From positions 2,016,001-2,080,000 of the forward strand of contig OZ251459.1 of NCBI GenBank assembly GCA_965242525.1: a stretch of 64,000 bases of DNA, given 5' to 3'. Source of the DNA: an uncultured Candidatus Binatia bacterium (GTDB taxonomy: Bacteria; Desulfobacterota; Binatia; UBA9968; JAJDTQ01). Each line of letters begins with the position of its first letter. The stretch's first letter is position 1. A program made the position numbers and the translations under genes. Positions 8,219-42,791 of the stretch are shown one piece after another. The notes below the pieces were generated by a model. The model saw only the letters and a list, made by a program, of their open reading frames with translations, did not search any database and had not been told where the DNA came from.

Positions 8219-8300
8219 GGGAAAGCGCGTCCTTCGACTTCGCTTCGCTACGCTCAGGACGAACGGGGACCTCCACTTGCTACGCTCGGAACGAACGGGA
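8219..8300 (+). repeat. MITE-A core palindrome (no TIRs) plus partial tandem copy
   Basis: GGGAAAGCGCGTCCTTCGACTTCGCTTCGCTACGCTCAGGACGAACGGGG followed by TACGCTCGGAACGAACGGGA. Confidence 0.8.
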
Positions 8301-10918: not shown

Positions 10919-12211
10919 ATGCCGTCGGCCGACAACCTGCTGGACACCCTGCACGAAGTGCGGTCCCGAACCCTCGCCCTGGTGGAGGACCTCACGGACG
11001 AACAACTGATCGGCCCCAACCTCCCCATCGTCAACCCTCCGCTCTGGGAGATCGGCCACGTGGCCTGGTTCCACGAACGCTGGGCGCTCCGGCGCCTGCG
11101 CGGCCGCGACGCCATCCTCCCGCAAGGCGACGCCCTCTACAATTCTGCAACCGTCCCCCACGATTCCCGCTGGGACCTGGCGCTGCCGTCGCGGGAAGCG
11201 ACCCTCGACTACATGGCGCGCGTTCTCGATCGCATCTCGGAAGCACTGCCCGGCCGCGCGCCCGGACCGGAGGAAACCTACTTCCACCGACTGGGCGTCC
11301 TGCACGAAGACATGCACGCGGAGGCGCTGACCTACACGCGCCAGACCCTGGCCTACCCCGGGCCCTCGTTCCTCCCCCGCGGGCCGGCCTCGGCCGGCGG
11401 CCCCCACCCGGGCGACGCGGAGGTCCCCGGCGGCGAGTTCCTGCTCGGGGCAAGCCCGGACTCCCCCTTCGTCTTCGACAACGAGAAGTGGGGGCACCCG
11501 ATGACCGTGGCGCCCTACTGCATGGCCAAGGCGCCGGTGACCAACGCCGAGTTCGCCGCGTTCGTGGACGACCGGGGCTACGAGGATCCGCGCTGGTGGA
11601 GCGCCGCGGGCTGGGAGTGGCGCCGGACCGGAGGCGGACCCCATCCCGTGTACTGGCGTCGGGAGTCCCCCGGACGCTGGCTGGAGCGGACCTTCGACCG
11701 ATGGCTGCCGCTTGAGGGCCACCTCCCGGTGATCCACGTCAACTGGTACGAGGCCGAGGCATACTGCAACTGGGCCGGACGCCGGTTGCCCACCGAGGCC
11801 GAGTGGGAGATGGCCGCGGCGGTGGACCCCGCGGACCGAGCGGACCCGGAAGCGGCCAAGCGCCGTTTCCCGTGGGGCGGCGCGCCCCCCGACCCGGACC
11901 GCGGCAACCTCGACTGGGCCGGGGGCGGCCGGACGCCGGTGGACGCGCTTCCGGCCGGCGACAGCCCGGTGGGCTGCCGGCAGATGATCGGCAACGTGTG
12001 GGAGTGGACGGCCGACGTCTTCCACCCCTACCCCGGTTTCGTCCGGGACCCCTACGAGGAGTACTCCGAGCCCTGGTTCGGAGACCACCGGGTGCTGCGC
12101 GGCGGCTGCTGGACCACCCGCTCGCACCTCATCCGCAACACGTGGCGCAACTTCTACAAACCGGACCGCCGGGACGTCCTCGCCGGCTTCCGCACCTGCG
12201 CACGGCGATGA
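10919..12211 (+). CDS. senA: Selenoneine synthase SenA (EgtB-like DinB + FGE-sulfatase non-heme iron enzyme)
   Basis: NPPLWEIGHVAWF, iron motif HEDMHAE, RLPTEAEWE, GNVWEW, RNFY; adjacent to senB. An alternative in-frame GTG at 10763 overlaps the GH84 stop. Confidence 0.75.
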   Translation: MPSADNLLDTLHEVRSRTLALVEDLTDEQLIGPNLPIVNPPLWEIGHVAWFHERWALRRLRGRDAILPQGDALYNSATVPHDSRWDLALPSREATLDYMARVLDRISEALPGRAPGPEETYFHRLGVLHEDMHAEALTYTRQTLAYPGPSFLPRGPASAGGPHPGDAEVPGGEFLLGASPDSPFVFDNEKWGHPMTVAPYCMAKAPVTNAEFAAFVDDRGYEDPRWWSAAGWEWRRTGGGPHPVYWRRESPGRWLERTFDRWLPLEGHLPVIHVNWYEAEAYCNWAGRRLPTEAEWEMAAAVDPADRADPEAAKRRFPWGGAPPDPDRGNLDWAGGGRTPVDALPAGDSPVGCRQMIGNVWEWTADVFHPYPGFVRDPYEEYSEPWFGDHRVLRGGCWTTRSHLIRNTWRNFYKPDRRDVLAGFRTCARR

Positions 12212-13093: not shown

Positions 13094-14053
13094 ATGGCCG
13101 CCATCGCCCTGGTGACCCCCGCGGGACCCACCCGGCGCACGGGCAACCGCATCTCGGGGGGCCGGTGGGGGCGGATCCTCAGGGCATCGGGCCATCGGGT
13201 CCGGACCCTGGACCGCTACGACAGTGAACACTGCGACCTGCTCATCGCGCTGCACGCCCGCCGCAGCCACGAGTCCGTCCTGCGGTTCCGCCAACTCCAC
13301 CCCCACAGGCCCGTCATCGTGGTGCTGACCGGGACGGACCTGTACCACGACATCCGCGTCAACGAGGACGCCCAGGAGTCCCTCCGGCTGGCGAGCCGCC
13401 TGGTGGTGCTGCAGCAACAGGGGCTCCGGGAACTCTCCCCTGCACTCCAGCGGAAGACCCGGGTCATCTACCAGTCGGCGTCGCCCTGCACCCCTCGCCC
13501 CGGAGACCGGCGCAGGGCCTTCACCGTATCGGTGGCGGGCCACATGCGGACCGAGAAGGACCCGTTCCGCACGGCCATGGCGGTGCGCGGGTTGCCGTCC
13601 TCGTCCCGGATCCGAGTGCTGCACATGGGCGCCGCCCTGAGCGAGGACATGGAGCGGCGCGCCCGGCGGGAGGAAGAGCGGAACCCGCGGTACCGCTGGC
13701 TGGGGGAATTGGCGCACTGGCAGGCGCGGCAGATGCTCGCCAAGGGCCACCTCCTGTCCATTACCTCGCGCATGGAGGGCAGCTCCAACGTCCTGTGCGA
13801 GGCCCTGGCCTCCGGGGTTCCGGTGGCTGCCTCGAAGATCCCGGGACTGGTGGGGACCCTGGGCGAAGACTACCCGGGGTACTTCGAACTCGGTGACACC
13901 GGAGGGCTGCGGCGGCTGTTGCTCAGGGCCGAAGGCGACCCGGAGTTCTACCGGAGCCTGACGCGGCATTGCGCCAAGGCCGCGCCGCTGGTGCTCCCCG
14001 AGCGCGAAGTCCAAGCCTGGCGGCGCCTGGTGGACGAGGTCGCCGCCGGCTGA
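13094..14053 (+). CDS. senB: Selenosugar synthase SenB (GT-B glycosyltransferase)
   Basis: IALVTPA...GNRISGGRW, LIALHARRS, VVLTGTDLYHD, GHMRTEKDP, SRMEGSSNVLCEA, LGEDYPGYF are characteristic of the SenB family. Confidence 0.85.
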   Translation: MAAIALVTPAGPTRRTGNRISGGRWGRILRASGHRVRTLDRYDSEHCDLLIALHARRSHESVLRFRQLHPHRPVIVVLTGTDLYHDIRVNEDAQESLRLASRLVVLQQQGLRELSPALQRKTRVIYQSASPCTPRPGDRRRAFTVSVAGHMRTEKDPFRTAMAVRGLPSSSRIRVLHMGAALSEDMERRARREEERNPRYRWLGELAHWQARQMLAKGHLLSITSRMEGSSNVLCEALASGVPVAASKIPGLVGTLGEDYPGYFELGDTGGLRRLLLRAEGDPEFYRSLTRHCAKAAPLVLPEREVQAWRRLVDEVAAG

Positions 14054-14102
14054 CTCCACGAGGGGCCGCGCCTGCATGGCGCCGGTGCCGTCGTTCCCGA
14101 GA

Positions 14103-14131
14103 TGGATTCCCGCTTTCGCGGGAATGACGGG
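14103..14131. repeat. Isolated REP/dRS3-like palindrome between convergent genes (possible terminator role)
   Basis: TGGATTCCCGCTTTCGCGGGAATGACGGG, same motif as inside MITE-B. Confidence 0.75.
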
Positions 14132-14168
14132 GAGTCGGCGTCCGGTTGCCGGCTTGCTGCTTTCCGGC

Positions 14169-15332
14169 TCACTCCGCGCCGGAGAGGACCTCCGTCAGCG
14201 CCTCGGCTACGGTGTCCAGCTCGGCGTGGGTGATGGTGAGGGGGGGCAGCAGCCGCACCACGGTGGCGCCCGCGGGCAAGGCGAGCACGCCTCGCTCCAT
14301 GAGCCGGACCAGGTACGGCTGGGACTTCTCCTTGAGCTCGATGCCGATCATCAGGCCCAGTTGCCGCAGTTCCCTGACCTTGGGCAAATCCCTCGCCTCC
14401 AGGCGCTCCCGCAGGTAGGCGCCCTTTTCCGCGGCTGCCTGGTCGAGCCGTTCCTCGACCATGGCGTCGATGGCCGCAAGGGACGCGGCGCAGGCCAGGG
14501 GGTTGCCGCCGAAGGTGCTGCCGTGCCTGCCCACCGGGGGCGTCACCTTGTCGGAACAGAGCACCGCGCCCATGGGGATGCCCCCGGCCATGGCCTTGGC
14601 CAGGCACAGGATGTCGGGCTCCAGGCCGAAGTGCTCGCAGGCGAACATCTTTCCGGTGCGGCAGAAACCGGTCTGGACCTCGTCGATGACCAGCAGGACG
14701 CCCCGGTCCCGGCACAGCTCGCCCACTTGTGAGAAGAACTCCGCCTTGCCGAGGTTCACCCCCCCTTCCCCCTGGACCACCTCCAGCAGCACGGCCGCGG
14801 TGTCGTCGCCCACCTGCGCTTCCAGCTTGGCGAAGTTGTTGAAGGGCGCGAACCGGAAACCTTCCACCACCGGCACGAAGGGCTCCCGGTACTCGCGCGT
14901 GAAGGTGGCGCTCAGGGCGCCCATGGTGCGGCCGTGGAACCCGCGCATGGCGCACACGAGCTCGTGCTTGCCGGTGGTGAAGCGGGCGAACTTGATGGCC
15001 GCTTCGATGGTCTCGGCGCCCGAGTTGCACAGGTAGGCGCGGGTGAGGCCGCCCGGGGCGATGCCCACCAGCCGCTCCAGCAGCCGCGCCTTGACGTCGT
15101 TGTAGAAGATCCCCGGGCAGGTCAGCAGCCGCCGGGCCTGCTCGGCCACCGCCTCCGCCACCTTCGGGTGGCAGTGGCCCAAGCTGGCCACGCCGTGGCC
15201 GGCCGCGCAGTCGATGTACTCCCGGCCGGCGTCGTCCCACACCCGGGCGCCCTGGCCGCGCACCAGCACCACGTCGCGCTTGGGATAGACGTCGAACTCG
15301 TACCGCCGCTGCAACTCCATCCAGTCGCTCAC
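14169..15332 (-). CDS. lysJ: [LysW]-aminoadipate/glutamate semialdehyde aminotransferase (LysJ/ArgD)
   Basis: Class III PLP motifs NSGAE, FHGRT, DEVQTG, LAKAMAGG, HGSTFGGNP; located in the lysW operon. Confidence 0.85.
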   Translation of the reverse strand: MSDWMELQRRYEFDVYPKRDVVLVRGQGARVWDDAGREYIDCAAGHGVASLGHCHPKVAEAVAEQARRLLTCPGIFYNDVKARLLERLVGIAPGGLTRAYLCNSGAETIEAAIKFARFTTGKHELVCAMRGFHGRTMGALSATFTREYREPFVPVVEGFRFAPFNNFAKLEAQVGDDTAAVLLEVVQGEGGVNLGKAEFFSQVGELCRDRGVLLVIDEVQTGFCRTGKMFACEHFGLEPDILCLAKAMAGGIPMGAVLCSDKVTPPVGRHGSTFGGNPLACAASLAAIDAMVEERLDQAAAEKGAYLRERLEARDLPKVRELRQLGLMIGIELKEKSQPYLVRLMERGVLALPAGATVVRLLPPLTITHAELDTVAEALTEVLSGAE

Positions 15333-16120
15333 CGGATCACCGTTCCCTTCCCCGCCAGGGCGTCGCGCACCGGGTGCTCCACCCTGCCGTCGCTCATGAC
15401 GACTCTCTCCGCCCCTTCCTCGAACAGCCGCCGCAACGCCAGCATCTTGCGCTTCATGCGCCCGGCCACCTGGGCCTCCCGCTGCTCCAGCTCGGCCGCG
15501 CGGATGTGCGGGACCACCGTGCCCTCGTCGTCCTTGTCCTCCAGGAACCCGGGGGCTTCGATGAGCTGCAACACCACCTCGGCGTGGAAGGCGGCCTGGA
15601 GCGCGTTCACGATGTCGTCGTTCTCGGAGTTGATGGCGGTTCGGCTCTCGTCGATGATGGGGATGGAGAGCACGGGCCGGTAGCCGTGGTCCAGCAGCAG
15701 CCGCAGCAACTCCTCGTTGACGCTCCGGGGCTTCCCCGAGAAGTCCCGGACGATCAGCGTCTTGCCGTCCTTCCGCACCCGGATGCCCTTGTTGCGCCGG
15801 CCCTGGACGGCCCTGCCATCGATGCCGGAAAGGCCCACGGCGTTGACCCCGTTCCGTTGCAGCAACTCCACGATGCGCTTGTTCTGGAGGCCCGCATACG
15901 CCATCAGGATGGCGTCCATGGCCGCCTCGTCCGAGCGCACGCTGGTGTAGCCCGACACCGACGTCAGCACCTGGGTGGGAGCGCCGAGCTTGGCCGCAAG
16001 CGCGTCGCGCACCGCGTTGGCCCCGTGCACCAACACGAAGGGGTCGGACACCTCGGCTAGGTCCCGGGCGACGCCCGGCAGGTTGATGGCGCTGCCGCCG
16101 CCCACCTTCACCAGGATCAT
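15329..16120 (-). CDS. lysZ: [LysW]-aminoadipate/glutamate kinase (LysZ/ArgB)
   Basis: MILVKVGGG, VLVHGAN, SVSGYTSVRSD, GRMKRK; GTGA overlap with lysJ. Confidence 0.9.
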   Translation of the reverse strand: MILVKVGGGSAINLPGVARDLAEVSDPFVLVHGANAVRDALAAKLGAPTQVLTSVSGYTSVRSDEAAMDAILMAYAGLQNKRIVELLQRNGVNAVGLSGIDGRAVQGRRNKGIRVRKDGKTLIVRDFSGKPRSVNEELLRLLLDHGYRPVLSIPIIDESRTAINSENDDIVNALQAAFHAEVVLQLIEAPGFLEDKDDEGTVVPHIRAAELEQREAQVAGRMKRKMLALRRLFEEGAERVVMSDGRVEHPVRDALAGKGTVIR

Positions 16121-16755
16121 CGGCGCCGCTCCACCGTGCGGTTGGGGATGGCGCTCCAGCCCCGCGGGTCCGGCACGGTCTCGGAGCTCACCGTGAAGCC
16201 CCGGTCGCTCCGGCGGGCGCGCAGCCGGAAGTATTCCGGGTCCTCGTTGAACAAGGACCCCACATAGACGTTCTCCCGGTCGGCGATGACCATGTTCATG
16301 GCCCTGACGTACCGGGTCCTGCGGACGATTACGTCCATGCCCTTCCTCATGGCCGCGGCCATGTCGCCCTTGTCGAAGCGCTTGACGTAGTTGAACACCT
16401 TCTCCGCGCCGATGCGGCCGGCCTCGGATATGCGCACGCCCCGGAGCTCGCCGTTGAACGCGAACGCGTATTTGCCGTCGCAGAACGGCATGTTGTTCTC
16501 CACCGCGATGCCCTCGTCCCGGAAAGCGCTGCGCGCGTGGCCCAACAGCAGGGTGGAAGCGCCGAACTGCCCCAGGTCGTCCTCCCAGATGGGCCGGACG
16601 TTGCGATAGACCTTCCACTCGCCGTCCGCCAGGTAGGCGCAACCCCAGCCGTGGCCCTGGTATTCCGGGCTGTTCCGGGCGACCTGGGCGAGGTGCGACA
16701 GACGCTCGCCGATGTCGAACGGTTCCGACTCCTTGACGCAAAGCAGGCGGCACAT
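16117..16755 (-). CDS. Class II glutamine amidotransferase-like Ntn hydrolase (EgtC/YafJ/Dug3-like)
   Basis: N-terminal nucleophile MCRLL, HGWG, LGHARSA, NNMPF, FAFNGEL; ATGA overlap with lysZ. Confidence 0.85.
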   Translation of the reverse strand: MCRLLCVKESEPFDIGERLSHLAQVARNSPEYQGHGWGCAYLADGEWKVYRNVRPIWEDDLGQFGASTLLLGHARSAFRDEGIAVENNMPFCDGKYAFAFNGELRGVRISEAGRIGAEKVFNYVKRFDKGDMAAAMRKGMDVIVRRTRYVRAMNMVIADRENVYVGSLFNEDPEYFRLRARRSDRGFTVSSETVPDPRGWSAIPNRTVERRR

Positions 16756-16785
16756 GGACGAAGGACCCCCGATGACCCCCGGTTC

Positions 16786-17838
16786 CTACCCTCCGGGATG
16801 CAGCCCGGGAAACTCCAGACCCAAGGTCTCGTCGAAGCCGTTCATTAGGTTGAAGGCCTGGACCGCCTGTCCCGCGGCCCCCTTCATGAGGTTGTCCAAG
16901 GCGCTGAGCACCACCAGCCGATCCGACCCTTTCTCCTTCTGGAAGCCGATGTCGCAGTAGTTGGCGCCGCTCAGCAGCTTGGGCTCCGGGTAGCGGTAGA
17001 TGCCGTCGGCCTCCTTGACCATGCGGATGAAGGGTTCGCCGCGGTACGCCTCCCGGTAGATCTTCCACACGTCCTTCTCTTCCAAGGGCTCGCGCAGGAA
17101 CAGGTGCGCGGTGGCCAGCACGCCCCGCACCATCTCGATGGAGGTGGCCGAGAAATAGACGCGGATCCGTTGGCCGAAGCTCAACTCCTGCACGATCTCC
17201 GCGCTGTGGCGGTGCAGCGTGGGCATGAACGAGCGCACCGCGCCGCTTCGCTCCGGGTGGTGGGACGCCTCGCTGGCGGCGTTGCCTCCTTCGCTGGAGC
17301 CCACCTTGACCTCCACCACCGTGCGGTCCGGTTCCACCAGCCCTTTCCTGAACAACGGGTACAGGCCGAGGATCGTAGCGGTGGCGTTGCAGCCCGCGCC
17401 GGTGACCAGGCTCGCCCCCCGGATCTCGTCCCGGTGCAGCTCCGGGACGCCATAGACGAACTCCTTCAGGAGTTCCGGGCGCAGGTGGGGCTTGCCGTAC
17501 CAGCGCCGGTACTCGTCCGGGTCGTCGAGCCGGAAGTCCGCGCTCAGGTCCACGAGCCTGGGGGCCAGCCCCCGGAAATGGTCGATGCGCTCCATGGCTT
17601 GGCCGTGGGGCAGGCAGAGGAACAGCAGGTCGCAAGAGCCGAGTTCGTCCATGCGGCGGAACCGGAGCTGGGTGCGCTTCCGCAGGTTTGGGTGGGCTTT
17701 GGACGCGAACTTCCCCGCGTAGCGCTCCGAGGTGACCTCGCACACCTCCACCCCGGGATGCCACAGGAGCAGCCGCAGGAGCTCGCCGCCCGTGTAACCC
17801 GACGCCCCCGCGATGGAGACCTTCAGCTTCTCGCCCAC
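16786..17838 (-). CDS. lysY: [LysW]-aminoadipyl/glutamyl-phosphate reductase (LysY/ArgC)
   Basis: GASGYTGGELLRLL, DLSADFRL, GAGCNATA, HHPERSG, DNLMKGAAGQAVQ; GTG start after a G-rich RBS. Confidence 0.9.
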   Translation of the reverse strand: MGEKLKVSIAGASGYTGGELLRLLLWHPGVEVCEVTSERYAGKFASKAHPNLRKRTQLRFRRMDELGSCDLLFLCLPHGQAMERIDHFRGLAPRLVDLSADFRLDDPDEYRRWYGKPHLRPELLKEFVYGVPELHRDEIRGASLVTGAGCNATATILGLYPLFRKGLVEPDRTVVEVKVGSSEGGNAASEASHHPERSGAVRSFMPTLHRHSAEIVQELSFGQRIRVYFSATSIEMVRGVLATAHLFLREPLEEKDVWKIYREAYRGEPFIRMVKEADGIYRYPEPKLLSGANYCDIGFQKEKGSDRLVVLSALDNLMKGAAGQAVQAFNLMNGFDETLGLEFPGLHPGG

Positions 17839-17932
17839 GGTCCGAGCCTCCCCCTCCCATGCGACATCGGAGCAACCTTCCCCGTTCGTCCGCGGCGATG
17901 CCGGCGGCCATGGACGCGGATGCAGCCCCCAT

Positions 17933-18030
17933 GCGAGACCGGAACGACCTTCCCCGTTCGTCCTGAGCGTAGCGAAGCGAAGTCGAAGGACGCGCTTTCC
18001 CAAGGGAGAACCGCATCGTTCCGACGTTCC
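17933..18030 (-). mobile_element. Degenerate MITE-A copy between lysX and lysY
   Basis: Core at 17951-18000, right end ATCGTTCCGACGTTCC, CCAT on both sides; a partial duplicate lies at 17856-17891. Confidence 0.7.
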
Positions 18031-18052
18031 CCATGCGTCTTTGCGGCCCGGG

Positions 18053-18949
18053 TCACGACGCCCCCGGCCCCGGCCGGTCCGCGCCGTCCTTCCGGTCCCG
18101 TTCCTCCCGGGCCGCGGCGAGCACGTGCTCGACGATGAGCCCGGGGATGTTCACCCCGGTGGTGTCGATGCTGTTGCGGAACTCCATGGTGTAGTTGACC
18201 TCGTTGACCAGCAGCCCCTCCGGGGTCTCGAACAGGTCCGCGGCCACGATGCCGCCCCCCACCGCCCTGGCCGCGCGGACCGAGAGGTCCCGCAATTCGT
18301 CCGTCACCGGACAGTTCTCGGCGCGTCCGCCCCGGGCCGTGTTGGTGATCCAGTGGCCGCTGTAGCGGTAGATGGCGGCAACGCATTCGTCCCCGATGAC
18401 GAAACTGCGGATGTCCCGCCCGGACTTCTCCACGTACTGCTGGATGTAGAATATGGAGTGGTGGTAGGTGCCCAGAGTCGCCTTGTGCTCCAGGATCGAC
18501 TCCGCGGCGTCCCGGTCGTTGACCTTTGCCAGGAGCCTGCCCCAGGAACCCACCGCGGGCTTGAGCACCACCGGATAGCCCATCTCCTCGATGGCCTCCA
18601 GGGTGGACTGCTCGGTGAACGCGATGCGCACTTCGGGCTGGGGCACCCCGTGCTCCCGGAGATGCACCGACGTGAGGATCTTGTCGCCGCACACCCCGGC
18701 CACCAGCGACGAGTTGACGCAGCGCACGCCCGCGCTCTCGAACAGGCGCAGGCCATGCAGGGCCCGGGAATGGTTGATGCACCGCTCCAGCAGCACGTGG
18801 AGGTCGAAGCGGTCCCGGCCCAGGTTGAAGGAGAGCTTGCGGTCGTCGATCATCCTGAGATCGACCCCGGCCCGCTGGCGAAACTCCCGGATCAGGAGTT
18901 TCTCCTCGGGCCGCACCAGCGAATGCAGCAAACCGACCTTGAGGCTCAT
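18053..18949 (-). CDS. lysX: ATP-grasp LysW ligase LysX
   Basis: [33 protein letters not shown] (LysX-like rather than ArgX-like GF signature); ATGA overlap with lysW. Confidence 0.9.
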
Positions 18950-19110
18950 TCTCCCCAGTCTTCCTCTTCCTGAGGCGCCTCGGTGACCTCCGGCGGGTCG
19001 AGGCTCGTGACCTCCAACTCCGTGCCGCAGTCGGCGCAGGCGATCAACTCGCCCTCCACTGCGTCGTCCTCCAGTTCCCACTCGGCTCCGCACACCGGAC
19101 ATTCGACCAT
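18946..19110 (-). CDS. lysW: Amino-group carrier protein LysW (54 aa; not in the ORF track)
   Basis: Manual translation [54 protein letters not shown]: two CxxC motifs and C-terminal EDWGE; RBS GGAGG. Confidence 0.97.
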
Positions 19111-19156
19111 GGACGGTCACCTCCTCGTGCAGCTTTCCCTTTCCGGCTCTTGCGGT

Positions 19157-20548
19157 CTAGCGGGGGGAGCCGTCTGCCGCCACCGCGGCGATGGCGTCCC
19201 GCAAGACGGCGACCATCTCGTCGATCTGCTCCCGGGTGACCACCAGCGGCGGACACAACGCGAGGGTGTCGCCCGGGCACACCCGCAGCAGGAGGCCGTT
19301 GGCCAGCGCCTCTTCCAGGACCCTTCGCCCCACCTGCTCTTCCGGGGGAAATGGCTCCCGGGTGGCCTTGTCCTTCACCAGCTCCACCGCGGCCATGAGT
19401 CCCCGGCCGCGCACGTGGCCGACCGTGGGCAGGTCCGACAGGGTGGCCACCCGCTCCTGCAGGTAAGGACCCAACTCCGCGGCCCGCTCCACCAGGCGCT
19501 CCCGTTGGATGATGTCGAGGTTGGCCAGGGCCGCGGCGCACGCCACCGGGTGGCCGGTGTAGGTGTAGCCGTGGAAGAACGCGTCGTCGCCCTTGGCCAG
19601 GAGGGTCTGGAACAGATCCTCCTTGAACAGCATGGCGCCCAGCGGGAGATAGCCGCTGGTGATGCCCTTGGCGGTGATGAGCACATCCGGCGTCACGCCC
19701 TCCCCGGCGCACGCGAACAGGCTGCCGGTGCGCCCGAAGCCCGTGATCACCTCGTCGCAGACCATCAGGACGCCGTGCCGGTCACAGATCTCCCGGATGC
19801 GGGCAAGCCACCCCCGGGGCGGCACGACCACCCCGCCCCCGCCCTGGACGGGCTCGGCCACGAAGGCCGCCACCGCGTCCATGCCCTCCTGCTCGACGAT
19901 CCTTTCGAGCTCGTCGGCGCAGGCCAGCTCGCAGCCCGGCCAGGTCTTCCCCAACTCACAGCGGTAGCAGTGGGGCCGCGCCATGTGTTGCACTCCCGGC
20001 AGGCCCGGCTCCATCTGCCGGTTGAAGACCGGTATCCCCGTGAGCATGGCTGCGCCGCTGGAGGAGCCGTGGTAGCCGTGGTTCAAGGTGACGAACCGGG
20101 TGCGCCGGGGCTCCCCCCTGGCCTTCCAGTAGGCCCGCACCAGGCGGATCATGCTTTCGTTGGCCTCGGAGCCGCCGGAGGTGAACACCACCCGGGTGAG
20201 ACCCTCCGGAGCCATCTCCGCCAACCGGGACGCCAGCCGGACGGTGGGTTCCGAGGTGGGACCCACGAGGGTGGGCGCGAAGGCGAGCCGGTCCATCTGT
20301 TCGGCCGCCGCCCGGGTGATCTCGGTCCGCCCGTGGCCCACGTGCACGTTCCAGAGGGTGGAGAGGCCGTCGATGTAACGCTTGCCCAGGGCGTCCCAGA
20401 GATGGACCCCCTCGGCCCGGACGAATACCGGCAGGGTGCCGGACTGGTGCCGGGACAACGGCACGAAGCCGTGGACCAGGTGGTCCCGGTCCGCCCGGCT
20501 CAAGGCCGCAGCCCGCTCCAGGTCAACGGGAATCGGGACAGGGGGCAT
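19157..20548 (-). CDS. Class III (omega-amino acid) aminotransferase
   Basis: SGGSEAN, GYHG, AEPVQG, DEVITGFGRTG, TAKGITSGY, HGYTYTGHP. Confidence 0.88.
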   Translation of the reverse strand: MPPVPIPVDLERAAALSRADRDHLVHGFVPLSRHQSGTLPVFVRAEGVHLWDALGKRYIDGLSTLWNVHVGHGRTEITRAAAEQMDRLAFAPTLVGPTSEPTVRLASRLAEMAPEGLTRVVFTSGGSEANESMIRLVRAYWKARGEPRRTRFVTLNHGYHGSSSGAAMLTGIPVFNRQMEPGLPGVQHMARPHCYRCELGKTWPGCELACADELERIVEQEGMDAVAAFVAEPVQGGGGVVVPPRGWLARIREICDRHGVLMVCDEVITGFGRTGSLFACAGEGVTPDVLITAKGITSGYLPLGAMLFKEDLFQTLLAKGDDAFFHGYTYTGHPVACAAALANLDIIQRERLVERAAELGPYLQERVATLSDLPTVGHVRGRGLMAAVELVKDKATREPFPPEEQVGRRVLEEALANGLLLRVCPGDTLALCPPLVVTREQIDEMVAVLRDAIAAVAADGSPR

Positions 20549-20551
20549 GGC

Positions 20552-21583
20552 TCACAGCCGGTAGTAGCGCCTGGGGTTGTCGCACAGGATCTTCTTGCGG
20601 AGGTCGGGGGCCAGGTCCTCGCGGGCGAAGAAGTCCGGCAGGTCGTGGAAGAACTCCGAGCGCGCCCGCTCGTGGGGGTAGTCCGAGGCCCACAGCACCT
20701 GGTCCCCTCCCAGCCGGTCCAGCACGTAGGGCAGGCTCTTCTCGTCCACCTCGCAGGTGAAGAAGATGTTGCCGCCCCGTATGATGTCGCTGGGGCGCTG
20801 CTGCACCGCCAGGGCGTGGCCGCGGCGCTCCCAGTTCTCGTCCAGTGCGTCCATCATGAACGGCACCCAGCCGGTGCCGCATTCGAGGTAGGCCACCCGC
20901 AATTTGGGGAAGCGGTCGAAGACGCCGCTGTTCACCATGCTCATGATCTGCATCATCTGCGGCATGGTGTGCTCCAGGGGGCGCGCTTCCGCCAAGCTCT
21001 CGAAGATGTCCAGGCCCAGGCCGGTGACCGGCCCGCCGTGGACCCCCAAAGGGCAGTCCAGCCGTTCCGCTTCGGCGTAGAGGGGGTCGAACTGGCTCCC
21101 TCCCAGGCCCACCAGCGGGGCCATGACCGACGGGATCACCCCCGACACCATGCCCAGTTCCTCGACGCAGCGGCGCAACTCCGCGACCGCGGCGCCGATG
21201 TCCTGCACCGGCAGCAGGGCCACGCCCTTGAGCCGATCCGACCGGCGCCCGAAGCAGTCGTGGAGCCAGTCGTTGTAGGCCCGGGCCACCGCGACGGCCC
21301 AGCCCTTGTTGCGGATCTGGCCGTGGAACAGGGCGTTGCTGGGGTAGAGGACCGTCTGTTCGATGTTCGACTCTTCCAGGAAGCCCAGCCAGTTGTCCGC
21401 GTCCGGCACCTCGGCCTTGTGGCGGGAGGACATGCCCCGCATCCAGCCGTCGGTGAGGGGAAAGAAATAGTATTCCCGGGTCCAGTCCTTGTCGCACCAG
21501 GGTTCCGGCAGGTAGCGGCGCAGGTCCTTGTCCTGGTCCACCACGTGGCCGTCCGCGTCGATGATCCCGTAGTCGAGTTCCAT
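20552..21583 (-). CDS. Amidohydrolase_2 family protein
   Basis: IIDADGHV, RAYNDWL, LWASDYPH. Confidence 0.85.
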   Translation of the reverse strand: MELDYGIIDADGHVVDQDKDLRRYLPEPWCDKDWTREYYFFPLTDGWMRGMSSRHKAEVPDADNWLGFLEESNIEQTVLYPSNALFHGQIRNKGWAVAVARAYNDWLHDCFGRRSDRLKGVALLPVQDIGAAVAELRRCVEELGMVSGVIPSVMAPLVGLGGSQFDPLYAEAERLDCPLGVHGGPVTGLGLDIFESLAEARPLEHTMPQMMQIMSMVNSGVFDRFPKLRVAYLECGTGWVPFMMDALDENWERRGHALAVQQRPSDIIRGGNIFFTCEVDEKSLPYVLDRLGGDQVLWASDYPHERARSEFFHDLPDFFAREDLAPDLRKKILCDNPRRYYRL

Positions 21584-21615
21584 AGGGAAAAACCTCCGTA
21601 TGCGCTTCGGCGTAC

Positions 21616-23085
21616 TCAGCGTATCATCGAGCGGCCGGACTCGCCCGAATAGTTGACGAACACGGTCTTGAGCTCGGTGAAGAAGTTGATGCCTTCCTCG
21701 GACATCTCCCGCTCCCCCACCCCGGTGGCCTTGATGCCGCCGAAGGGAAGCTGGGCCTCGCCGCCGATGGTGGGTTCGTTCACGTGGACCATGCCGGTCT
21801 CCACTTCCTCCACGAAACGCATGACCGTCTGCACGTCCCGGGTGAAGATGGACGTGGTGAGGCCGAACTCCACCGAGTTGGCGAAGGCGATGGCCTGGTC
21901 CAGGTCCCCGGCCGCGGCCACCGAAAGCACCGGACCGAAGATCTCCTCGCGGAAGATGCGCATGTCGGGGGTCACGTCGTCGAACACCGTGGGCTCCACG
22001 TAGTAGCCGTGGTCCAGCCCCGGGGGCCGGCCGCCCCCGGCCACCAGCCGGGCCCCTTCCTGCTTGCCCACCTCGATGTACTCCAGGTCGGTCTTCCACT
22101 GGCTCTCGTCCACCGCGGGCCCCATGTCCACGTCGCCGTCCAGGCCCGGCCCCACGCGGATCTTCCGGGCGTGGTCCTCCAGCCGGGCCACCAGTTCGTC
22201 CTTGGCGGCGCCGATGGCGATGACCCGGGAGGTGGCGGTGCAGCGCTGGCCGGTGGAGCCGAAGGCCCCGTCCCGGATGGCCACCGCGGCCTTGTCCAGG
22301 TCGCAGTCGGGCATGACGATGACCGCGTTCTTGCCGCCCATCTCGCAAGTCACCTTGGCGCCCCGGGATGCGGCCTTCACGTAGAGGTCGCTGCCGATCT
22401 GGTTGGAGCCGGTGAACGACACCACCGGGATGCGCGCGGAACCCACCATGGTCTCGCCCACGTCCGACCCCGACCCCACCACCACGTTGAAGACCCCCGG
22501 CGGAAGGCCCGCTTCCTCATAGACCTCCGCCAGCAGGCCCGCGGTGGCGGGAGTCAGTGAGGCGGGCTTCAGCACCACCGAGTTGCCCGCCACCAGCGCC
22601 GGGGCCGACTTCCACACCGGTATGGCCCAGGGAAAGTTCCACGGCGCGATCAACCCCACCACCCCCATGGGCTGCCGGATGGTGTAGGTGAAGGTGTCCC
22701 GGGCCTCGGACGGAAGGGTCTTGCCGCCGATGCGGTAACCGGCCCCGGCGTTGTACTCCAGCAGCGAGACCCCCTTGAGCACCTCGCCCCGGGCCTCCTT
22801 GAATATCTTCCCCTCCTCGCGGGTCATGGTCTCGGCGATCTCGTCCGCGCGCCGGCGCGCGATGTCCGCGGCCCGCCAGAGCACCCGCCCCCGCTCCGGC
22901 CCCGGGGTCTTCCTCCACCCCCGGAAAGCGGCCGCCGCGGCGTCGATGGCCCCCTCGGTGTCCGCAGCCGTGGCCATGGGGAACTCGGCGATCACGTCCC
23001 GTGTGTCCGCGGGGTTGACGTTGCGCACCCGCCTGTCGGAATCGGGCTGGCGCCACTCGCCGTTGATGTAGGAACCGGTATGCAT
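21616..23085 (-). CDS. Aldehyde dehydrogenase (KGSADH-like)
   Basis: [35 protein letters not shown]. Confidence 0.9.
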
Positions 23086-23207
23086 GCGCGTCTCCTTGGG
23101 GTTTCCTTGGCGTCTCCTTGGGATCGTGCACCGTGCGTTGACGTGAGTGCGATTAAAAAAGACTAACCGTGCCGTGTCAAGCGTTGGCGGGCCGTACCCG
23201 CCTTGAT

Positions 23208-23277
23208 CCGTTCGTCCTGAGCGTAGCGAAGCGAAGTCGAAGGACGCGCTCTTCCCCCGGGATTGTCCAGAGGTTCC
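23208..23277 (-). repeat. Partial MITE-A (core + one TIR)
   Basis: Core followed by GATTGTCCAGAGGTTCC. Confidence 0.8.
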
Positions 23278-23316
23278 TTGAAACCCCGAGCAGGATTTGC
23301 CATGGTTCCCGCCACC

Positions 23317-26300
23317 ATGAGACCCTCGCCTCTCCTTCAACCCTCGCCCTTCCTTCGCGCCGCGGTCCTCGCAGCCGGACTCCTGCTGGTTCCGTCCGCG
23401 GCCTGGAGCAAATCGGCCAAGGAAGTGTTCCAGCAAGCCGCCCCCTCGGTAGTCGTGGTGCTGGCCCTGGGCAGGAACGGCGCCACCACCGGCCAAGGCA
23501 GCGGCGTGGTGGTGGGCCGCACGGAAGTGGTCACCAACTGCCACGTGGTGGAAGACGCCGCGGGCATCGCGGTGCGCCAAGCCTCGGACCACACGGGCGA
23601 AACGACTTGGCGCATGGAGGCGTCCGTGCTGGCCCGGAACGACGAACGCGACCTGTGCCTGTTGTACGTGGACCAGTTGTCGGACCCGCCGGCACCCTCC
23701 ACGGCGCGCCTCGGTTCGGCCAAGACCTTGTCAGTGGGCGAGGAAGTCTATGCCATCGGCGCCCCCCGGGGCCTGGAACTGTCCCTGTCCCGCGGCATCG
23801 TGTCCCAACTGCGCGGCGTCCTGGGCAAGCGCCGTGGCCCCTTGATCCAGACCGACGCCGCCATCTCCCCCGGCTCGTCCGGCGGCGGCCTCTTCAACGC
23901 CAACGGCGAACTCGTCGGGATCACCACCTTCAAGCGGAGAGGCGAGAACCTGAACTTCGCCCTTCCCGCGGATTGGGTACGGGAGTTGCGGGAGCAGGGC
24001 CGGTCGGCGTTGGAGGCGGCGAAACTGCAGGCGGAGTGTGAGGAGAATCCGGATTTCGACTGTCTTGTGGCGCTGGCTGTGATGGATGCGGGGATGGAGG
24101 ATGCTGGTTTGCGAAGGCTTACCTTGTGGAACATCGCGGAGGCGCTACGTAACATCACAGAAATGCAAACCAAAGCAGGAAACGTGACTGATGCACTTCA
24201 AACCGCGCAGAAAATCGACGATGCTGGTTTCCGTGCAACGGTATTGAAAGGTATCAAAATCGCACACAGAGACATTCTAGCCGCACAAGCGAAAGCGGGA
24301 AACGTGACTGGTGCACTCAATACTGCGCAAAAAATCGACGACGCCGAGTGGCGTACAGAGATATTGGCTAAGATCGCAGTCACACAAGCGAAAGCGGGAA
24401 ACGTAGCTGACGCATTCGAAACCACGCAGACAATCGACGACCCGGAGTGGCATGCACGAACATTGGGTAGCATCGCATACGCACAAGTCGAAGCGGGAAA
24501 CGTGCCTGCTGCACTCAATACTGCGCAAAAAATCGATCGTGCAAAGGAGCGTGCAGCGATATTGACACTCATTGCACTCGCACAAGTCGAAGCAGGAGAA
24601 TCACAAGCGGCCAGAAAGACGCTAGCTAATGTAATCAATACCGCACAGACAATGGACGACCCGGAGTGGCGTGCACAGACATGGAGCTTCATCGCAGCTA
24701 TACAAATGGAGATGGGAAACGTGCCTGGTGCGCTCAATGCCGCGCAAAAAATCGACGACGCCGAGTCGGGTGCATATCTATTGAGCGAAATCGCAGTCAC
24801 ACAAGCGAAAGCGGGAAACGTGGCTGACGCACTCAAAACCATGCAGAGAATCAGCGACGCGGAGTGGCGTGCAACGGCATTAAGAGCCATTGCAGCCGCA
24901 CAAGCGAAAGCGAGAGAACCACAAGCAGCCAGAAAGACGTTGGCTAATGCAATCAATGCCGCACAGACAATCGACAATGCGTACAGGCGTGCAAGGGCAT
25001 TGGAAGATATTAAAACCGCACACAGAGATATTGCAACTGCACAAGCGAAAGCGGGAAACGTGGCTGACGCACTCGAAACCACGCAGAGAATCGACGACCC
25101 AGACTGGCGTGCACGAACGTTGACCGGCATCGCAGCCGCACAAATGGAAACGGGAGAGCGGCGATCAGCCAGAAATACATTCGCTGAGGCAATCAATGCC
25201 GCACAGACAATCGACAAGGCGTGGGCCCGTTCGTCGAGATTGACAGAAGTTGCAGCCGCACAAGCAAAAGCAGGGGAGCAGCAAGCAGCCAGAAATACAT
25301 TCACTAAGGCAATCAATGCCACGCAGAGAATCGACGACCCGGAGGGGCGTGCAGGAACATTGACTGGCATCGCAGCCGCACAAGCGAAAGCGGGAGAGTG
25401 GCAAGCGGCCAGCAATACATTCACTGAGGCAATCAATGTCGCACAGACAATCGACAATGCGTACCTGCGTGCATTGGGATTGAAGAAGATCGCAACTGCA
25501 CAAGCGAAAGCAGGAAACGTGGCTGACGCACTCGAAACCACGCAGAGAATCCACGACCCGGACTCACGTGCACAAACGTTGACCGGCATCGCAGCCGCAC
25601 AAATGGAAACGGGAGAGCGGCGATCAGCCAGCAATACATTCGCTGAGGCAATCAATGCCGCACAGACAATCGACAAGGCGTGGGCCCGTTCGTCGAGATT
25701 GACAGAAGTCGCAGCCGCACAAGCAAAAGCAGGGGAGCAGCAAGCAGCCAGAAATACATTCACTGAGGCAATCAATGCCACGCAGAGAATCGACGACCCG
25801 GAGCGGCGTGCACAAACATTGACTGGCATCGCAGCCGCACAAATGGAAACGGGAGAGCGGCGATCAGCCAGAAATACATTCACTGAGGCAATCAATGCCG
25901 CACAGAGAATCCATAGTGCAAAGCCCCGCTCGTCGAGATTGGAGGAAATCGCAACCGCACAAGCGAAAGCGGGAGAGCAGCAAGCGGCCAATCGGACGTT
26001 GACTGCTGCTTTCGATGCGGCACAGTATCTCAATACGCCCTACGATCGCCTTACGACCTCTGCAAGAATCTTGTCCACCCAGGCGAAAACAGGAAATGTC
26101 AATGACGCGATGGAAGCCTTCAAGAAGACATTCAAGGCCCGGGAGACACATCTTTCGGAAGCGGCGTTGAGGCTGGATCGCTCAGATCGAGTCCTGGTCC
26201 AGCGTGGTCTCGCGTCGTTGGGCAAGGACGTGGGGGCTGCCGACGGAGTTTTCGGACAACGGACCCGGGCGGCGGTGCGTTCGTGGCAAGTGGATGCAGG

Positions 26301-26448
26301 GTTCAAGGCCACCGGCCACCTGACACGAGAGCAGGCGGCCAGACTGATCGCCGCCGGTCGTCGTGCTGCCGCCGCGGCGACGGAAACACAACGGCTGAAG
26401 GAGTTTTGCGCTGAAGTCCCACAGTCCGAGCTTTGCCGTGACCTTTGA
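23317..26448 (+). CDS. Secreted trypsin-like (S1) serine protease + long TPR/HEAT-like helical repeat array + C-terminal peptidoglycan-binding domain
   Basis: Signal peptide; VVTNCHVV, DLCLL, ISPGSSGGGL; repeats (IAxAQAKAGNVADALxTAQxIDD); VQRGLASLG...ADGVFGQRTRAAVRSWQ...TG. Confidence 0.85.
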   Translation: MRPSPLLQPSPFLRAAVLAAGLLLVPSAAWSKSAKEVFQQAAPSVVVVLALGRNGATTGQGSGVVVGRTEVVTNCHVVEDAAGIAVRQASDHTGETTWRMEASVLARNDERDLCLLYVDQLSDPPAPSTARLGSAKTLSVGEEVYAIGAPRGLELSLSRGIVSQLRGVLGKRRGPLIQTDAAISPGSSGGGLFNANGELVGITTFKRRGENLNFALPADWVRELREQGRSALEAAKLQAECEENPDFDCLVALAVMDAGMEDAGLRRLTLWNIAEALRNITEMQTKAGNVTDALQTAQKIDDAGFRATVLKGIKIAHRDILAAQAKAGNVTGALNTAQKIDDAEWRTEILAKIAVTQAKAGNVADAFETTQTIDDPEWHARTLGSIAYAQVEAGNVPAALNTAQKIDRAKERAAILTLIALAQVEAGESQAARKTLANVINTAQTMDDPEWRAQTWSFIAAIQMEMGNVPGALNAAQKIDDAESGAYLLSEIAVTQAKAGNVADALKTMQRISDAEWRATALRAIAAAQAKAREPQAARKTLANAINAAQTIDNAYRRARALEDIKTAHRDIATAQAKAGNVADALETTQRIDDPDWRARTLTGIAAAQMETGERRSARNTFAEAINAAQTIDKAWARSSRLTEVAAAQAKAGEQQAARNTFTKAINATQRIDDPEGRAGTLTGIAAAQAKAGEWQAASNTFTEAINVAQTIDNAYLRALGLKKIATAQAKAGNVADALETTQRIHDPDSRAQTLTGIAAAQMETGERRSASNTFAEAINAAQTIDKAWARSSRLTEVAAAQAKAGEQQAARNTFTEAINATQRIDDPERRAQTLTGIAAAQMETGERRSARNTFTEAINAAQRIHSAKPRSSRLEEIATAQAKAGEQQAANRTLTAAFDAAQYLNTPYDRLTTSARILSTQAKTGNVNDAMEAFKKTFKARETHLSEAALRLDRSDRVLVQRGLASLGKDVGAADGVFGQRTRAAVRSWQVDAGFKATGHLTREQAARLIAAGRRAAAAATETQRLKEFCAEVPQSELCRDL

Positions 26449-26590
26449 GCACCCTCGAAGGCACGGCGGAAAAGCGCGCTTGTCCTTCGACTTGGCCGAA
26501 GGCGCCGTGCTCGTACTTAGGCTGCCTTCCTTCACCTTGAGTTTCGCTTTGCAGAGGAACCCCTGAGCATCGGGGGAACCGGCCATCCCC

Positions 26591-27088
26591 ATGTCCTCAT
26601 CCGCCAACTTGAAGCACGTCACCATCTACACGGACGGAGCCTGCCTCGGGAACCCGGGGCCGGGGGGCTACGGCGTCGTCCTCCTATACAACGGCAAACG
26701 GCGGGAGATCAGCCACGGCTACCGCAAGACCACCAACAACCGCATGGAGATCATGGCCGTCTTGGCGGGCCTCCGGTCCCTGAAGGAGCCGTGCCGGGTG
26801 ACCCTTTACAGCGACTCCCGGTACGTGGTGGACGCCATGTCCAAGGGATGGGCCAAGCGGTGGCGGGAACGGAACTGGAAGAGGAACGCCAGGGAGTCCG
26901 CCCGGAACCCCGACCTATGGGCCGAGTTGCTCGACCTGTCCGACCGGCACCGGGTGGACTACCGCTGGATCAAGGGACACGCGGGCGATCCGCTAAACGA
27001 GCGTTGCGACGATCTCGCAGTGGCCGCCGCCCATGACCCGGATAGGAGCGTCGATGCAGCCTACGAGAACCAAACGGGGATGTCCTGA
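26591..27088 (+). CDS. rnhA: Ribonuclease HI
   Basis: IYTDGACLGNPGPGG, TTNNRME, SDSRYV, KGHAG, NERCD. Confidence 0.96.
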   Translation: MSSSANLKHVTIYTDGACLGNPGPGGYGVVLLYNGKRREISHGYRKTTNNRMEIMAVLAGLRSLKEPCRVTLYSDSRYVVDAMSKGWAKRWRERNWKRNARESARNPDLWAELLDLSDRHRVDYRWIKGHAGDPLNERCDDLAVAAAHDPDRSVDAAYENQTGMS

Positions 27089-27118
27089 TTCACGGGAAGG
27101 CGTCGACACGAATTTTCC

Positions 27119-27316
27119 GGCTCTTCCGGCTTTTGTGTGGGTAAGGTAGGAGGGGAAAGGTGCGACAGGGTTCAAGGACCGACCATGGAGGAAGCGATGC
27201 CAGACCGGGAGTTGTACGCGAGGCTACTGGGGATCGAAGCGCCGTGGCGAGTGGAGGGAGTGGAGTTGAGGCTGGAAGAGGGAAAGGTGGTGGTACAGGT
27301 TGGACACGGGAGGTAG
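27119..27316 (+). pseudogene. Truncated ISL3-family IS: left end + first 39 codons of the transposase
   Basis: Left end GGCTCTTCCGGCTTTTGTGTGGGTAAGGTAGGAGGGGAAAGG matches MITE-B. ORF 27197-27316 MPDRELYARLLGIEAPWRVEGVELRLEEGKVVVQVGHGR* resembles ISL3 transposase N-termini. Confidence 0.8.
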
Positions 27317-27371
27317 GGAGTAAAGTTATCCAGAGTGTGACCACGAGGCATCAGTCGATATCTCCGCTATT

Positions 27372-42699: not shown

Positions 42700-42791
42700 T
42701 GGCGGAGGGGGCGAGATTCGAACTCGCGGTCCGCGGTCAAGCGGACTCCGGTTTTCAAGACCGGCGCCTTAAACCACTCGGCCACCCCTCC
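42700..42791 (-). tRNA. tRNA-Ser (anticodon UGA)
   Basis: Reverse complement GGAGGGGTGGCCGAGTGGTTTAAGGCGCCGGTCTTGAAAACCGG-long variable arm-GAGTTCGAATCTCGCCCCCTCCGCCA. Confidence 0.97.

Follow-up and report, generated by a model that had tools for sequence, protein, structure and literature searches.

Which enzyme frees lysine from its protein carrier in bacteria that encode the LysW pathway and lack LysK? The question is raised by a 64,000-nucleotide stretch of the genome of an uncultured Candidatus Binatia bacterium (GenBank assembly GCA_965242525.1, contig OZ251459.1, positions 2,016,001 to 2,080,000 of the forward strand), which in its full length is referred to here as the window. Six tightly packed genes on its minus strand, at positions 14169-19110, have the order lysW-lysX-lysY-Ntn-lysZ-lysJ, where Ntn denotes a protein predicted to be an N-terminal nucleophile (Ntn) hydrolase. 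The LysW pathway is the classic example of amino-group protection by a protein, and its last step has been tied to a single family, that of LysK, a dinuclear metal M20 peptidase and homologue of ArgE. A first-pass annotation of the window, made from its letters alone, had proposed that the embedded Ntn enzyme is a non-orthologous replacement for LysK. Each computational check that it named has come out on its side, and the proposal is supported by gene order across genomes, by exclusivity with LysK, by an Ntn subfamily that occupies the place of lysK, by the dependence of some carriers on the pathway and by a modelled complex. It appears probable, at roughly 0.8 by our own estimate, that the Ntn protein is a LysW gamma-glutamyl amidohydrolase that stands in for LysK and releases lysine.

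The operon and its genes

All six genes were found within the coordinates and in the order that the first-pass annotation had given, with the hydrolase embedded. The lysW gene (18946-19110, minus strand, as for the whole operon) encodes a 54-residue zinc-ribbon amino-group carrier that ends in EDWGE and scores 65.8 bits on TIGR01206 (cut-off 53.2) and 67.2 bits on PF21344. Its stop codon is overlapped (ATGA) by the ATG of lysX (18053-18949), the gene for a 298-residue ATP-grasp ligase (TIGR02144, 345.4 bits, cut-off 275.6) whose predicted role, from its family match, is the loading of the substrate onto the C-terminal Glu of LysW. The product of lysY (16786-17838), 350 residues long from a GTG start that is our own choice, is a [LysW]-aminoadipyl-phosphate reductase of the ArgC family with Pfam semialdehyde dehydrogenase domains and 390.5 bits on TIGR01850 (cut-off 233.6). 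The Ntn gene (16117-16755) starts 30 nucleotides downstream of the lysY stop, at an ATG that is the first start codon past an in-frame stop, and encodes 212 residues beginning MCRLL, with Cys2 in a predicted class II amidotransferase fold; this is the candidate LysW gamma-glutamyl amidohydrolase. Its stop is in turn overlapped by the ATG of lysZ (ATGA), which confirms at the junction itself the coupling of the two genes described earlier. The lysZ gene (15329-16120) encodes a [LysW]-aminoadipate kinase of 263 residues (NF010659, 251.7 bits, cut-off 223) and meets lysJ (14169-15332) in a GTGA overlap, the latter encoding a 387-residue class III aminotransferase of the LysJ/ArgD family (PF00202, 371.4 bits). 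LysW, LysX, LysY and LysZ all exceed the cut-offs of their own models; LysJ exceeds that of the argD family only (TIGR00707, 428.7 bits, cut-off 410.05), its score on the LysJ model NF042418 being 460.9 bits, under the cut-off of 700.

The absence of LysK and its exclusivity with the Ntn gene

The source genome is 4.23 Mb long and 98.96% complete, and a search of the whole of it for lysK, which the first-pass annotation had named as a check, returned nothing over the TIGR01902 cut-off of 163.1 bits. The eight weak M20-like places that it did return, the best with 47.1 bits, all lie outside C1:2016001-2080000, and the earlier statement that neither the operon nor the window holds an M20 peptidase is upheld. 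Among the 50 other Ntn-carrying genomes that stand behind the loci kept in the survey described below, LysK was over the cut-off in none (best score 106.5 bits), and six had no TIGR01902 match at all at E <= 1e-5.

Mutual exclusivity, another of the checks named for this locus, was examined in two phyla in which LysX-positive genomes of both types occur. In a sample of 401 Acidobacteriota genomes, 41 have LysX over the cut-off; the 41 genomes examined consist of 40 of these, the unpublished genome G202 being left out, and one whose match is cut by a contig end. (G202 is included only in the count of 41 of 401 and in the count of 19 of 20 below, and no conclusion depends on it.) The Ntn gene is present in 18 of those examined and LysK in 22, with both in none and neither in one. 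Of 301 Planctomycetota genomes 25 are LysX-positive; the Ntn gene is found in two of these and LysK in 22, the two never together, and one genome lacks both. Pooled, the 66 genomes comprise 20 with the Ntn gene only, 44 with LysK only, none with both and two with neither (Fisher p = 5.7e-15, a value uncorrected for relatedness). Seen from the Ntn side, 20 of the 401 Acidobacteriota genomes have a match, of which 19 are LysX-positive; the match in the remaining one, which is LysX-negative, is partial.

Gene order across genomes

A scan of one genome per species found a relative of the Ntn protein in at least 488 genomes, and 80 loci were kept for analysis. In all 80 the Ntn gene directly adjoins homologues of lysY, lysZ or lysJ, so that the co-occurrence of this glutamine amidotransferase subfamily with lysWXYZJ, which had been put forward as something to examine, is found as embedding in the cluster throughout. 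The commonest order is W-(HCS)-X-Y-Ntn-Z-J, where HCS stands for a gene of about 385 codons found between lysW and lysX in 24 of the 80 loci. We read it as homocitrate-synthase-like; its product scores 334-347 bits on the homocitrate synthase model (cut-off 413.55) and level with this on an isopropylmalate synthase subfamily model. LysX is present in every Ntn cluster in which the lysX region was recovered, and no M20 gene is found among the conserved neighbours of the 80 loci. According to the record titles, the loci come from Binatia, Calditrichia, Ignavibacteria/Melioribacteraceae, Gemmatimonadota, Arenicellales and other Gammaproteobacteria, KSB1, Acidobacteriota, Planctomycetota and Rhodothermaceae. 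Open frames of 548-562 residues that seemed to fuse lysY to the Ntn gene were rejected as fusions: the two genes are in different frames, with the lysY stop 2-3 nucleotides before the Ntn ATG. At locus L011 (genome G003, Binatia-type), tblastn gives the order J-W-X-Y-Ntn-Z-J-Y-Ntn-Z-J, as if part of the cluster were present a second time downstream; another view of the same locus shows an extra lysY only.

Clusters of the LysK type have the order W-X-Y-Z-J-K, and it is at the place of lysK, after lysJ, that a divergent subfamily of the Ntn protein is encoded in five loci from Acidobacteriota (L105-L109, in genomes G093, G113, G374, G392 and G194). These proteins are 220-251 residues long and 27-37% identical, and they keep the motifs MC, HARS, FNG and IG[A/S][E/Q]K. 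The motifs QGDGWG and IGSQK also occur in this subfamily, and some of the same loci have a homocitrate-synthase-like gene between lysY and lysZ. An unrooted FastTree phylogeny of concatenated LysX, LysY and LysZ was obtained for 84 of 120 loci, 36 having been dropped for incomplete genes. In it, three Ntn clusters with the gene in end position form the sister group of all clusters with the gene in mid-position, and a fourth nests among the latter. The pattern is what would be expected if lysK had been replaced once, long ago, at its own position and the Ntn gene had later moved to between lysY and lysZ, an order of events that, the tree being unrooted, we only infer.

An EgtC-type fold in a compact family

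At E <= 0.001 the family of the Ntn protein numbers 3062 proteins in a collection clustered at 90% identity, and the best 120 of these are 207-224 residues long and 55-94% identical to it. As representatives of 50%-identity clusters, relatives number 815, 319 and 122 at E <= 1e-3, 1e-10 and 1e-30. Judged by these sequences the family is compact and well conserved, and the source databases name its members only as 'glutamine amidotransferase', 'class II glutamine amidotransferase' or 'hypothetical'. The Ntn protein itself is over the cut-off of no model, with 18.6 bits on GATase_6 (cut-off 27) and 43.6 bits on the EgtC model TIGR03442 (cut-off 218.65).

An AlphaFold2 model of the protein (predicted local distance difference test score, pLDDT, 83.9; predicted template-modelling score, pTM, 0.84) was compared with solved structures by Foldseek. 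The best matches were to EgtC (PDB 4zfj, 4zfk and 4zfl; E 8.5e-12, template-modelling score 0.75, 17-19% identity), followed by two structural-genomics 'class II amidotransferase' proteins (3mdn and 1te5) and by the glutaminase domains of GFAT/GlmS and PurF, all with probability 1.00. By sequence the closest solved chains are likewise 3mdn (E 3e-5) and EgtC (E 4e-4). The model has the four-layer alpha-beta-beta-alpha fold of the class II Ntn enzymes, and the Cys nucleophile of these enzymes is encoded directly behind the initiator Met; M1 and C2 are kept in the divergent subfamily as well. In alignments of 16 and 23 sequences the invariant residues include M1, C2, R3, H73, R75, N101, G102 and G116, among which H73-A-R75-S and F-N101-G102 supply the Arg predicted to hold the substrate alpha-carboxylate and the Asn-Gly of a predicted oxyanion hole, roles that we presume from the motifs of GlmS and PurF. 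A weak local hhalign match (probability 6%) places the HARS and FNG motifs opposite HRR and FNG in an AsnB-like domain from the same genome, and in this tentative alignment G-R-I-G116-A-E-K stands opposite G-R-S-D-T-E-T, with Gly at the position of an Asp. Global hhalign against the N-domains of the genome's own GlmS and AsnB-like proteins gave nothing, and the local GlmS alignment was out of register. Class II amidotransferases bind glutamine by its free alpha-amino group through the Asp of their S-D-x-E motif. The exchange of this Asp for Gly116 would suit a Glu whose amino group is held in a peptide bond, and we offer it as a lead.

The picture that emerges from sequence and model together is that of a stand-alone amidase with a Cys nucleophile, of the EgtC type and yet no EgtC. 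The term 'EgtC-like' in the first-pass annotation holds for the fold and fails for the EgtC equivalog, on which the protein scores far too low. No EgtC is found over the TIGR03442 cut-off in a six-frame search of the source genome, where the Ntn gene scores 28.7 bits. With its Ntn fold the protein has no homology to the M20 peptidases, and it would be an analogue of LysK and no member of the LysK family.

Carriers that end in Glu or in Gln

Every LysW tail that was recovered reads EDWGE or EDWGQ (20 Ntn-type loci gave no tail), and the two endings are not spread evenly. The Gln-ended form is confined to Ntn-type clusters, where it accounts for 25 of 78 tails, the other 53 ending in Glu; of the 44 LysK-type clusters none has it (Fisher p = 3.2e-6). 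The type of a cluster was assigned from the locus or, for four Acidobacteriota and all Planctomycetota loci, from genome-level searches for Ntn and LysK. On the LysXYZ tree the ending switches 11 times, each time inside the Ntn clade. In five chromosome-level genomes whose LysW ends in Gln, the search for lysW gave a single match per genome. It is established for the LysW pathway that LysX needs the gamma-carboxylate, so that a LysW ending in Gln has to be deamidated before it can be loaded. An enzyme of glutaminase fold that recognises the C-terminus of LysW would explain how such carriers come to be used, and the same chemistry would release lysine. In the open-access PubMed Central and bioRxiv literature searched, as far as its indexed openings go, no description of a Gln-ended LysW was found.

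A modelled complex of the Ntn protein with LysW

The Ntn enzyme without Met1 was folded together with LysW from alignments of our own, with 23 rows for each partner. The interaction prediction score from aligned errors (ipSAE) was 0.62 (0.44, 0.67 and 0.62 in the separate runs), against 0.09 for the best of three controls; contacts agreed between runs to at least 67%, and the pLDDT of the partner was at least 82. The confident part of the predicted interface joins Ntn residues 2, 75-78, 89, 100-110, 115-117, 119-120, 142 and 146-148 to LysW residues 6, 29-31 and 47-54, with the acidic tail of LysW (Trp52, Gly53 and Glu54) placed on Cys2, on Arg75 of the HARS motif and on Asn101-Gly102. The model, which the first-pass annotation had suggested making, passes its controls with the tail of LysW in the active site; it supports binding, short of showing it. 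No solved structure of a comparable complex is known to us.

The product and the need for the pathway

In Thermus LysX the residues F182, I192, T203, N258 and S259 set the preference for aminoadipate over glutamate (PMC12998189, in the part consulted). The LysX of the window has F, I, T, N and S at these five positions in an alignment to 1uc8 and 3vpd, and so do 99 of the 103 LysX proteins of both cluster types that were compared. Because the signature is of the aminoadipate type, aminoadipate is the most likely load of the carrier and lysine the most likely product; a role of the operon in ornithine or arginine synthesis is, on the same signature, not favored.

Carriers of the Ntn gene differ in how far they would depend on it. 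A dapB gene is present in 26 of the 50 genomes, and the other 24 have none at E <= 1e-10. A homocitrate-synthase-like gene lies in the cluster in 18 of the 24 genomes without dapB, as against 1 of the 26 with it (put the other way, it is lacking from the clusters of 25 of 26 dapB-positive and 6 of 24 dapB-less genomes). The combination of dapB with a cluster that has no synthase is common to all 13 Binatia genomes and to the gammaproteobacterial carriers, and there seem to be two physiological uses of the same type of cluster. No dapB, no lysA and no M20 match were found in the isolate G045 or in G033 and G036, all of Melioribacteraceae type. For organisms like these the LysW route appears, from their gene content, to be the sole route to lysine, in which case an enzyme other than an M20 peptidase must free the product.

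The proposed reaction

We infer the substrate, both of the reactions (release and deamidation) and the roles of the residues from the comparisons above. After removal of Met1, the thiol of Cys2 would attack the gamma-carbonyl of LysW Glu54 in LysW-gamma-Glu-(N-alpha)-lysine, with Asn101 and Gly102 forming the oxyanion hole and Arg75 holding the free alpha-carboxylate of the C-terminal residue. Lysine would then leave, and hydrolysis of the gamma-glutamyl thioester would restore LysW-Glu for another round. A LysW encoded with a C-terminal Gln would be deamidated in the same manner, and such deamidation by the Ntn enzyme would explain why Gln-ended carriers are found only beside it.

Several observations weigh against this reading and temper the confidence placed in it. 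The label of Ntn or LysK changes only once on the LysXYZ tree, where the Ntn clade has a support of 73, and the clean exclusivity may rest on one old event; because of this single split the Fisher values given above overstate the independence of the genomes compared. For the LysK part of the same tree about 3.2 changes between Glu and Gln would be expected when scaled by branch length, and none is seen (P about 0.04). Two LysX-positive genomes have neither gene: the contig of G427 ends after lysY, and in G680 only W-X-Y were found. All but six of the 50 Ntn genomes (44) still have weak M20 matches, scoring up to 106.5 bits, and cleavage of LysW-lysine by one of these proteins is conceivable. 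The mapping of residues onto other class II amidotransferases is built on the general motifs of that class and on the hhalign match of 6% probability. The mark used for the ipSAE is reached by 58 of 80 solved complexes and by 2 of 110 mismatched pairs, counts that are only roughly valid for a complex folded from our own alignments.

The remaining points concern the source genome, which encodes lysA (524.1 bits), dapB (267.7), ArgJ (425.5) and a canonical argB (252.7) that adjoins an argD-like gene, together with a second ArgC-like gene. With these other routes to lysine and ornithine present, the operon is not the only possible route. No homocitrate synthase is found there over the cut-off, the best match on TIGR02146 being a LeuA-like frame of 535 residues with 271.8 bits (cut-off 413.55). 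On the map of this genome argB, the argD-like gene, lysA and dapB lie close together and ArgJ elsewhere (C1:2782894-2793670 and C1:2138525-2139694).

Other explanations

The explanations that survive best as alternatives are those in which the acyl-enzyme is used for transfer. In one, which we hold to be unlikely, the Ntn enzyme would be a LysW transamidase as well as a hydrolase, moving LysW by way of the gamma-glutamyl thioester from lysine to the next aminoadipate, able also to start the cycle without ATP from a Gln-ended 'pro-LysW', and recycling the carrier in the manner of ArgJ, with LysX only priming. In a stricter form, which seems to us quite unlikely, the enzyme would be mainly a transferase that passes the LysW thioester from lysine to a new aminoadipate, Gln-ended LysW serving as activated donor and LysX only priming the pool or topping it up. 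The thioester of an Ntn amidotransferase permits aminolysis as well as hydrolysis, the Gln-ended LysW of a third or so of the Ntn-type clusters (the 25 of 78) would be a usable acyl donor, and the gene stands mid-cluster between lysY and lysZ in most loci and not at the end. None of the features examined, however, separates transfer from hydrolysis; lysX is kept wherever its region was recovered, the LysW of the remaining 53 clusters ends in Glu, and EgtC, the nearest relative by structure, has PDB titles that call it a hydrolase.

It is very improbable, in our judgment, that the Ntn enzyme only matures or repairs LysW by deamidating its Gln while another hydrolase, such as a low-scoring M20 peptidase, frees lysine. 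The restriction of Gln-ended LysW to clusters with the Ntn enzyme would be accounted for, and the weak M20 matches in most of the genomes would supply candidates. Against this, the Ntn gene is kept in the many clusters whose LysW is already Glu-ended, the divergent subfamily sits at the lysK position, six of the 50 genomes have no M20 match to offer, and LysK is over its cut-off in 0/50, 0/18 and 0/2 of the Ntn genomes in the three samples. Scarcely credible is an enzyme unrelated to LysW, an EgtC- or YafJ-type amidase of thiol- or selenol-histidine or glutathione metabolism that lies by chance beside senA and senB: EgtC is indeed the best structural match and the two Sen genes do flank the operon, but the EgtC equivalog score is a fifth of its cut-off, a SenB-like neighbor is found in 13 of 80 loci as against lys embedding in all 80, and 19 of the 20 Acidobacteriota genomes with the Ntn gene are LysX-positive.

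Surroundings of the operon

The selenoneine genes in question lie on the plus strand, 100 bases to 3 kb beyond lysJ: senA at 10919-12211 (NF041186, 516.5 bits, cut-off 420) and senB at 13094-14053 (TIGR04348, 391.2 bits, cut-off 300). Of the 13 loci with a SenB-like neighbor, the one displayed as an example is a Binatia locus. A role of the Ntn protein as an EgtC or in selenoneine metabolism was rejected on its EgtC score and on the pattern of lys synteny. On the other side, upstream of lysW and on the same strand as the operon, are a class III aminotransferase (19157-20548) that ends 46 nucleotides before lysW, an Amidohydro_2 protein (20552-21583) that precedes it, and an aldehyde dehydrogenase (21616-23085) that is nearest to ketoglutarate-semialdehyde dehydrogenases and below their cut-off. 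A class III aminotransferase just upstream of lysW is found in 15 loci, giving the order J-W-X-Y-Ntn-Z-J, and those checked (G001-G013) all have Binatia-type titles. This upstream aminotransferase may feed the pathway where homocitrate synthase is absent.

The spacer between lysX and lysY is 214 nucleotides long and contains, at 17956-17987 (minus strand), one copy of a 32-base dispersed repeat. The repeat occurs at 16 places in the window with up to 3 mismatches (0 expected from shuffles), e.g., at 8233, 12254, 12917, 23210, 37106 and 47342, and may be REP-like or a miniature mobile element. A search with Rfam found no lysine riboswitch or other RNA element upstream, and in the whole window it matched only a tRNA, at 42703-42791. 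A promoter and terminator scan of 13500-24000 gave no promoter-like site and one terminator-like site as against 5.2 expected, and is uninformative. The region 23263-29966 has a lower G+C content (0.47-0.57, as compared with about 0.68 around it), with a strong excess of A over T at 24-26 kb, and contains open reading frames of 1061 residues (with many near-identical repeats of about 35 residues), 165 residues and 864 residues.

Comparison with known systems

The proposed Ntn enzyme and the LysK of Thermus thermophilus would act at the same step of the pathway, hydrolysing the amide that joins lysine, by its alpha-amino group, to the gamma-carboxyl of the C-terminal Glu of LysW. Their phyletic patterns are complementary, and the divergent Ntn subfamily matches the place of LysK in the gene cluster. 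The two differ in fold, being unrelated in structure, and in chemistry, the Ntn enzyme having a Cys nucleophile and a covalent thioester. They differ also in that a primary amide, such as that of a C-terminal Gln, is a natural type of substrate for the Ntn enzyme, and no Gln-ended LysW is found with LysK. With EgtC, whose PDB titles describe it as hydrolysing a gamma-glutamyl amide, the Ntn enzyme shares the organization of a stand-alone Cys2 enzyme of about 230 residues with no synthase domain. The gamma-glutamyl group cleaved by EgtC, however, is on a small molecule and has a free alpha-amino group, whereas the Glu of LysW is the last residue of a protein. The apparent replacement of the S-D-x-E Asp by an invariant Gly116 (on a weak alignment) would be a further difference from EgtC and the class II amidotransferases.

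Two other systems offer parallels. In the Pup-proteasome system the C-terminal residue of Pup is Gln or Glu depending on the species; Dop deamidates the Gln and also cleaves the gamma-glutamyl isopeptide, and an ATP-dependent ligase makes the bond. There too a small carrier or tag ends in Gln or Glu and one enzyme is responsible for deamidation and amide cleavage, although Dop has a glutamine-synthetase-like fold, needs a nucleotide and acts on an isopeptide to the epsilon-amine of a protein lysine, the purpose being protein tagging. ArgJ, at the end of the homologous arginine pathway, removes an amino-protecting group through an Ntn-type covalent acyl-enzyme; it differs in belonging to the DmpA/OAT superfamily, with a Thr nucleophile and autoproteolytic activation, and in transferring acetyl with no protein carrier. 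The source genome's ArgJ is separate from the Ntn gene.

What the finding would mean

The hydrolase of the last step is LysK in the account given in the part consulted of PMC12998189. For Caldithrix abyssi a locus of LysWXZYJ and Hcs has been described, with lysine synthesis considered possibly a case of non-orthologous displacement or incomplete (PMC5317091, part consulted), and the corresponding part of the Ignavibacterium album paper comes to the conclusion that lysine cannot be made (PMC3362086). In the parts consulted of these three papers, of PMC11651109 and of the GapMind 2026 preprint (10.1101/2024.10.14.618325), a substitute for LysK is named nowhere. A search for 'LysW' with 'glutamine amidotransferase' found no paper in open-access PubMed Central or bioRxiv, subscription-only papers and supplements being outside its scope, and by titles and the starts of abstracts no link of LysW to an enzyme of Ntn or EgtC type was found among the open-access papers listed. 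We rate as new both a variant of the known LysW pathway and a function for a family that has had no name.

Pathway predictions made from genomes treat the LysW route as incomplete where LysK is absent. If the reading of the Ntn protein as a LysW gamma-glutamyl amidohydrolase is true, a gap in lysine prototrophy would close in 488 or more species-level genomes from many phyla, and a family known at present only as 'class II glutamine amidotransferase' or 'hypothetical' would gain a function. It would add a clear instance of a single reaction catalysed by non-homologous enzymes, and the Gln-ended LysW would be a carrier that needs deamidation before its first use, in parallel to Pup and Dop. The Ntn enzyme could also serve as a metal-free remover of LysW-type carriers in engineered pathways.

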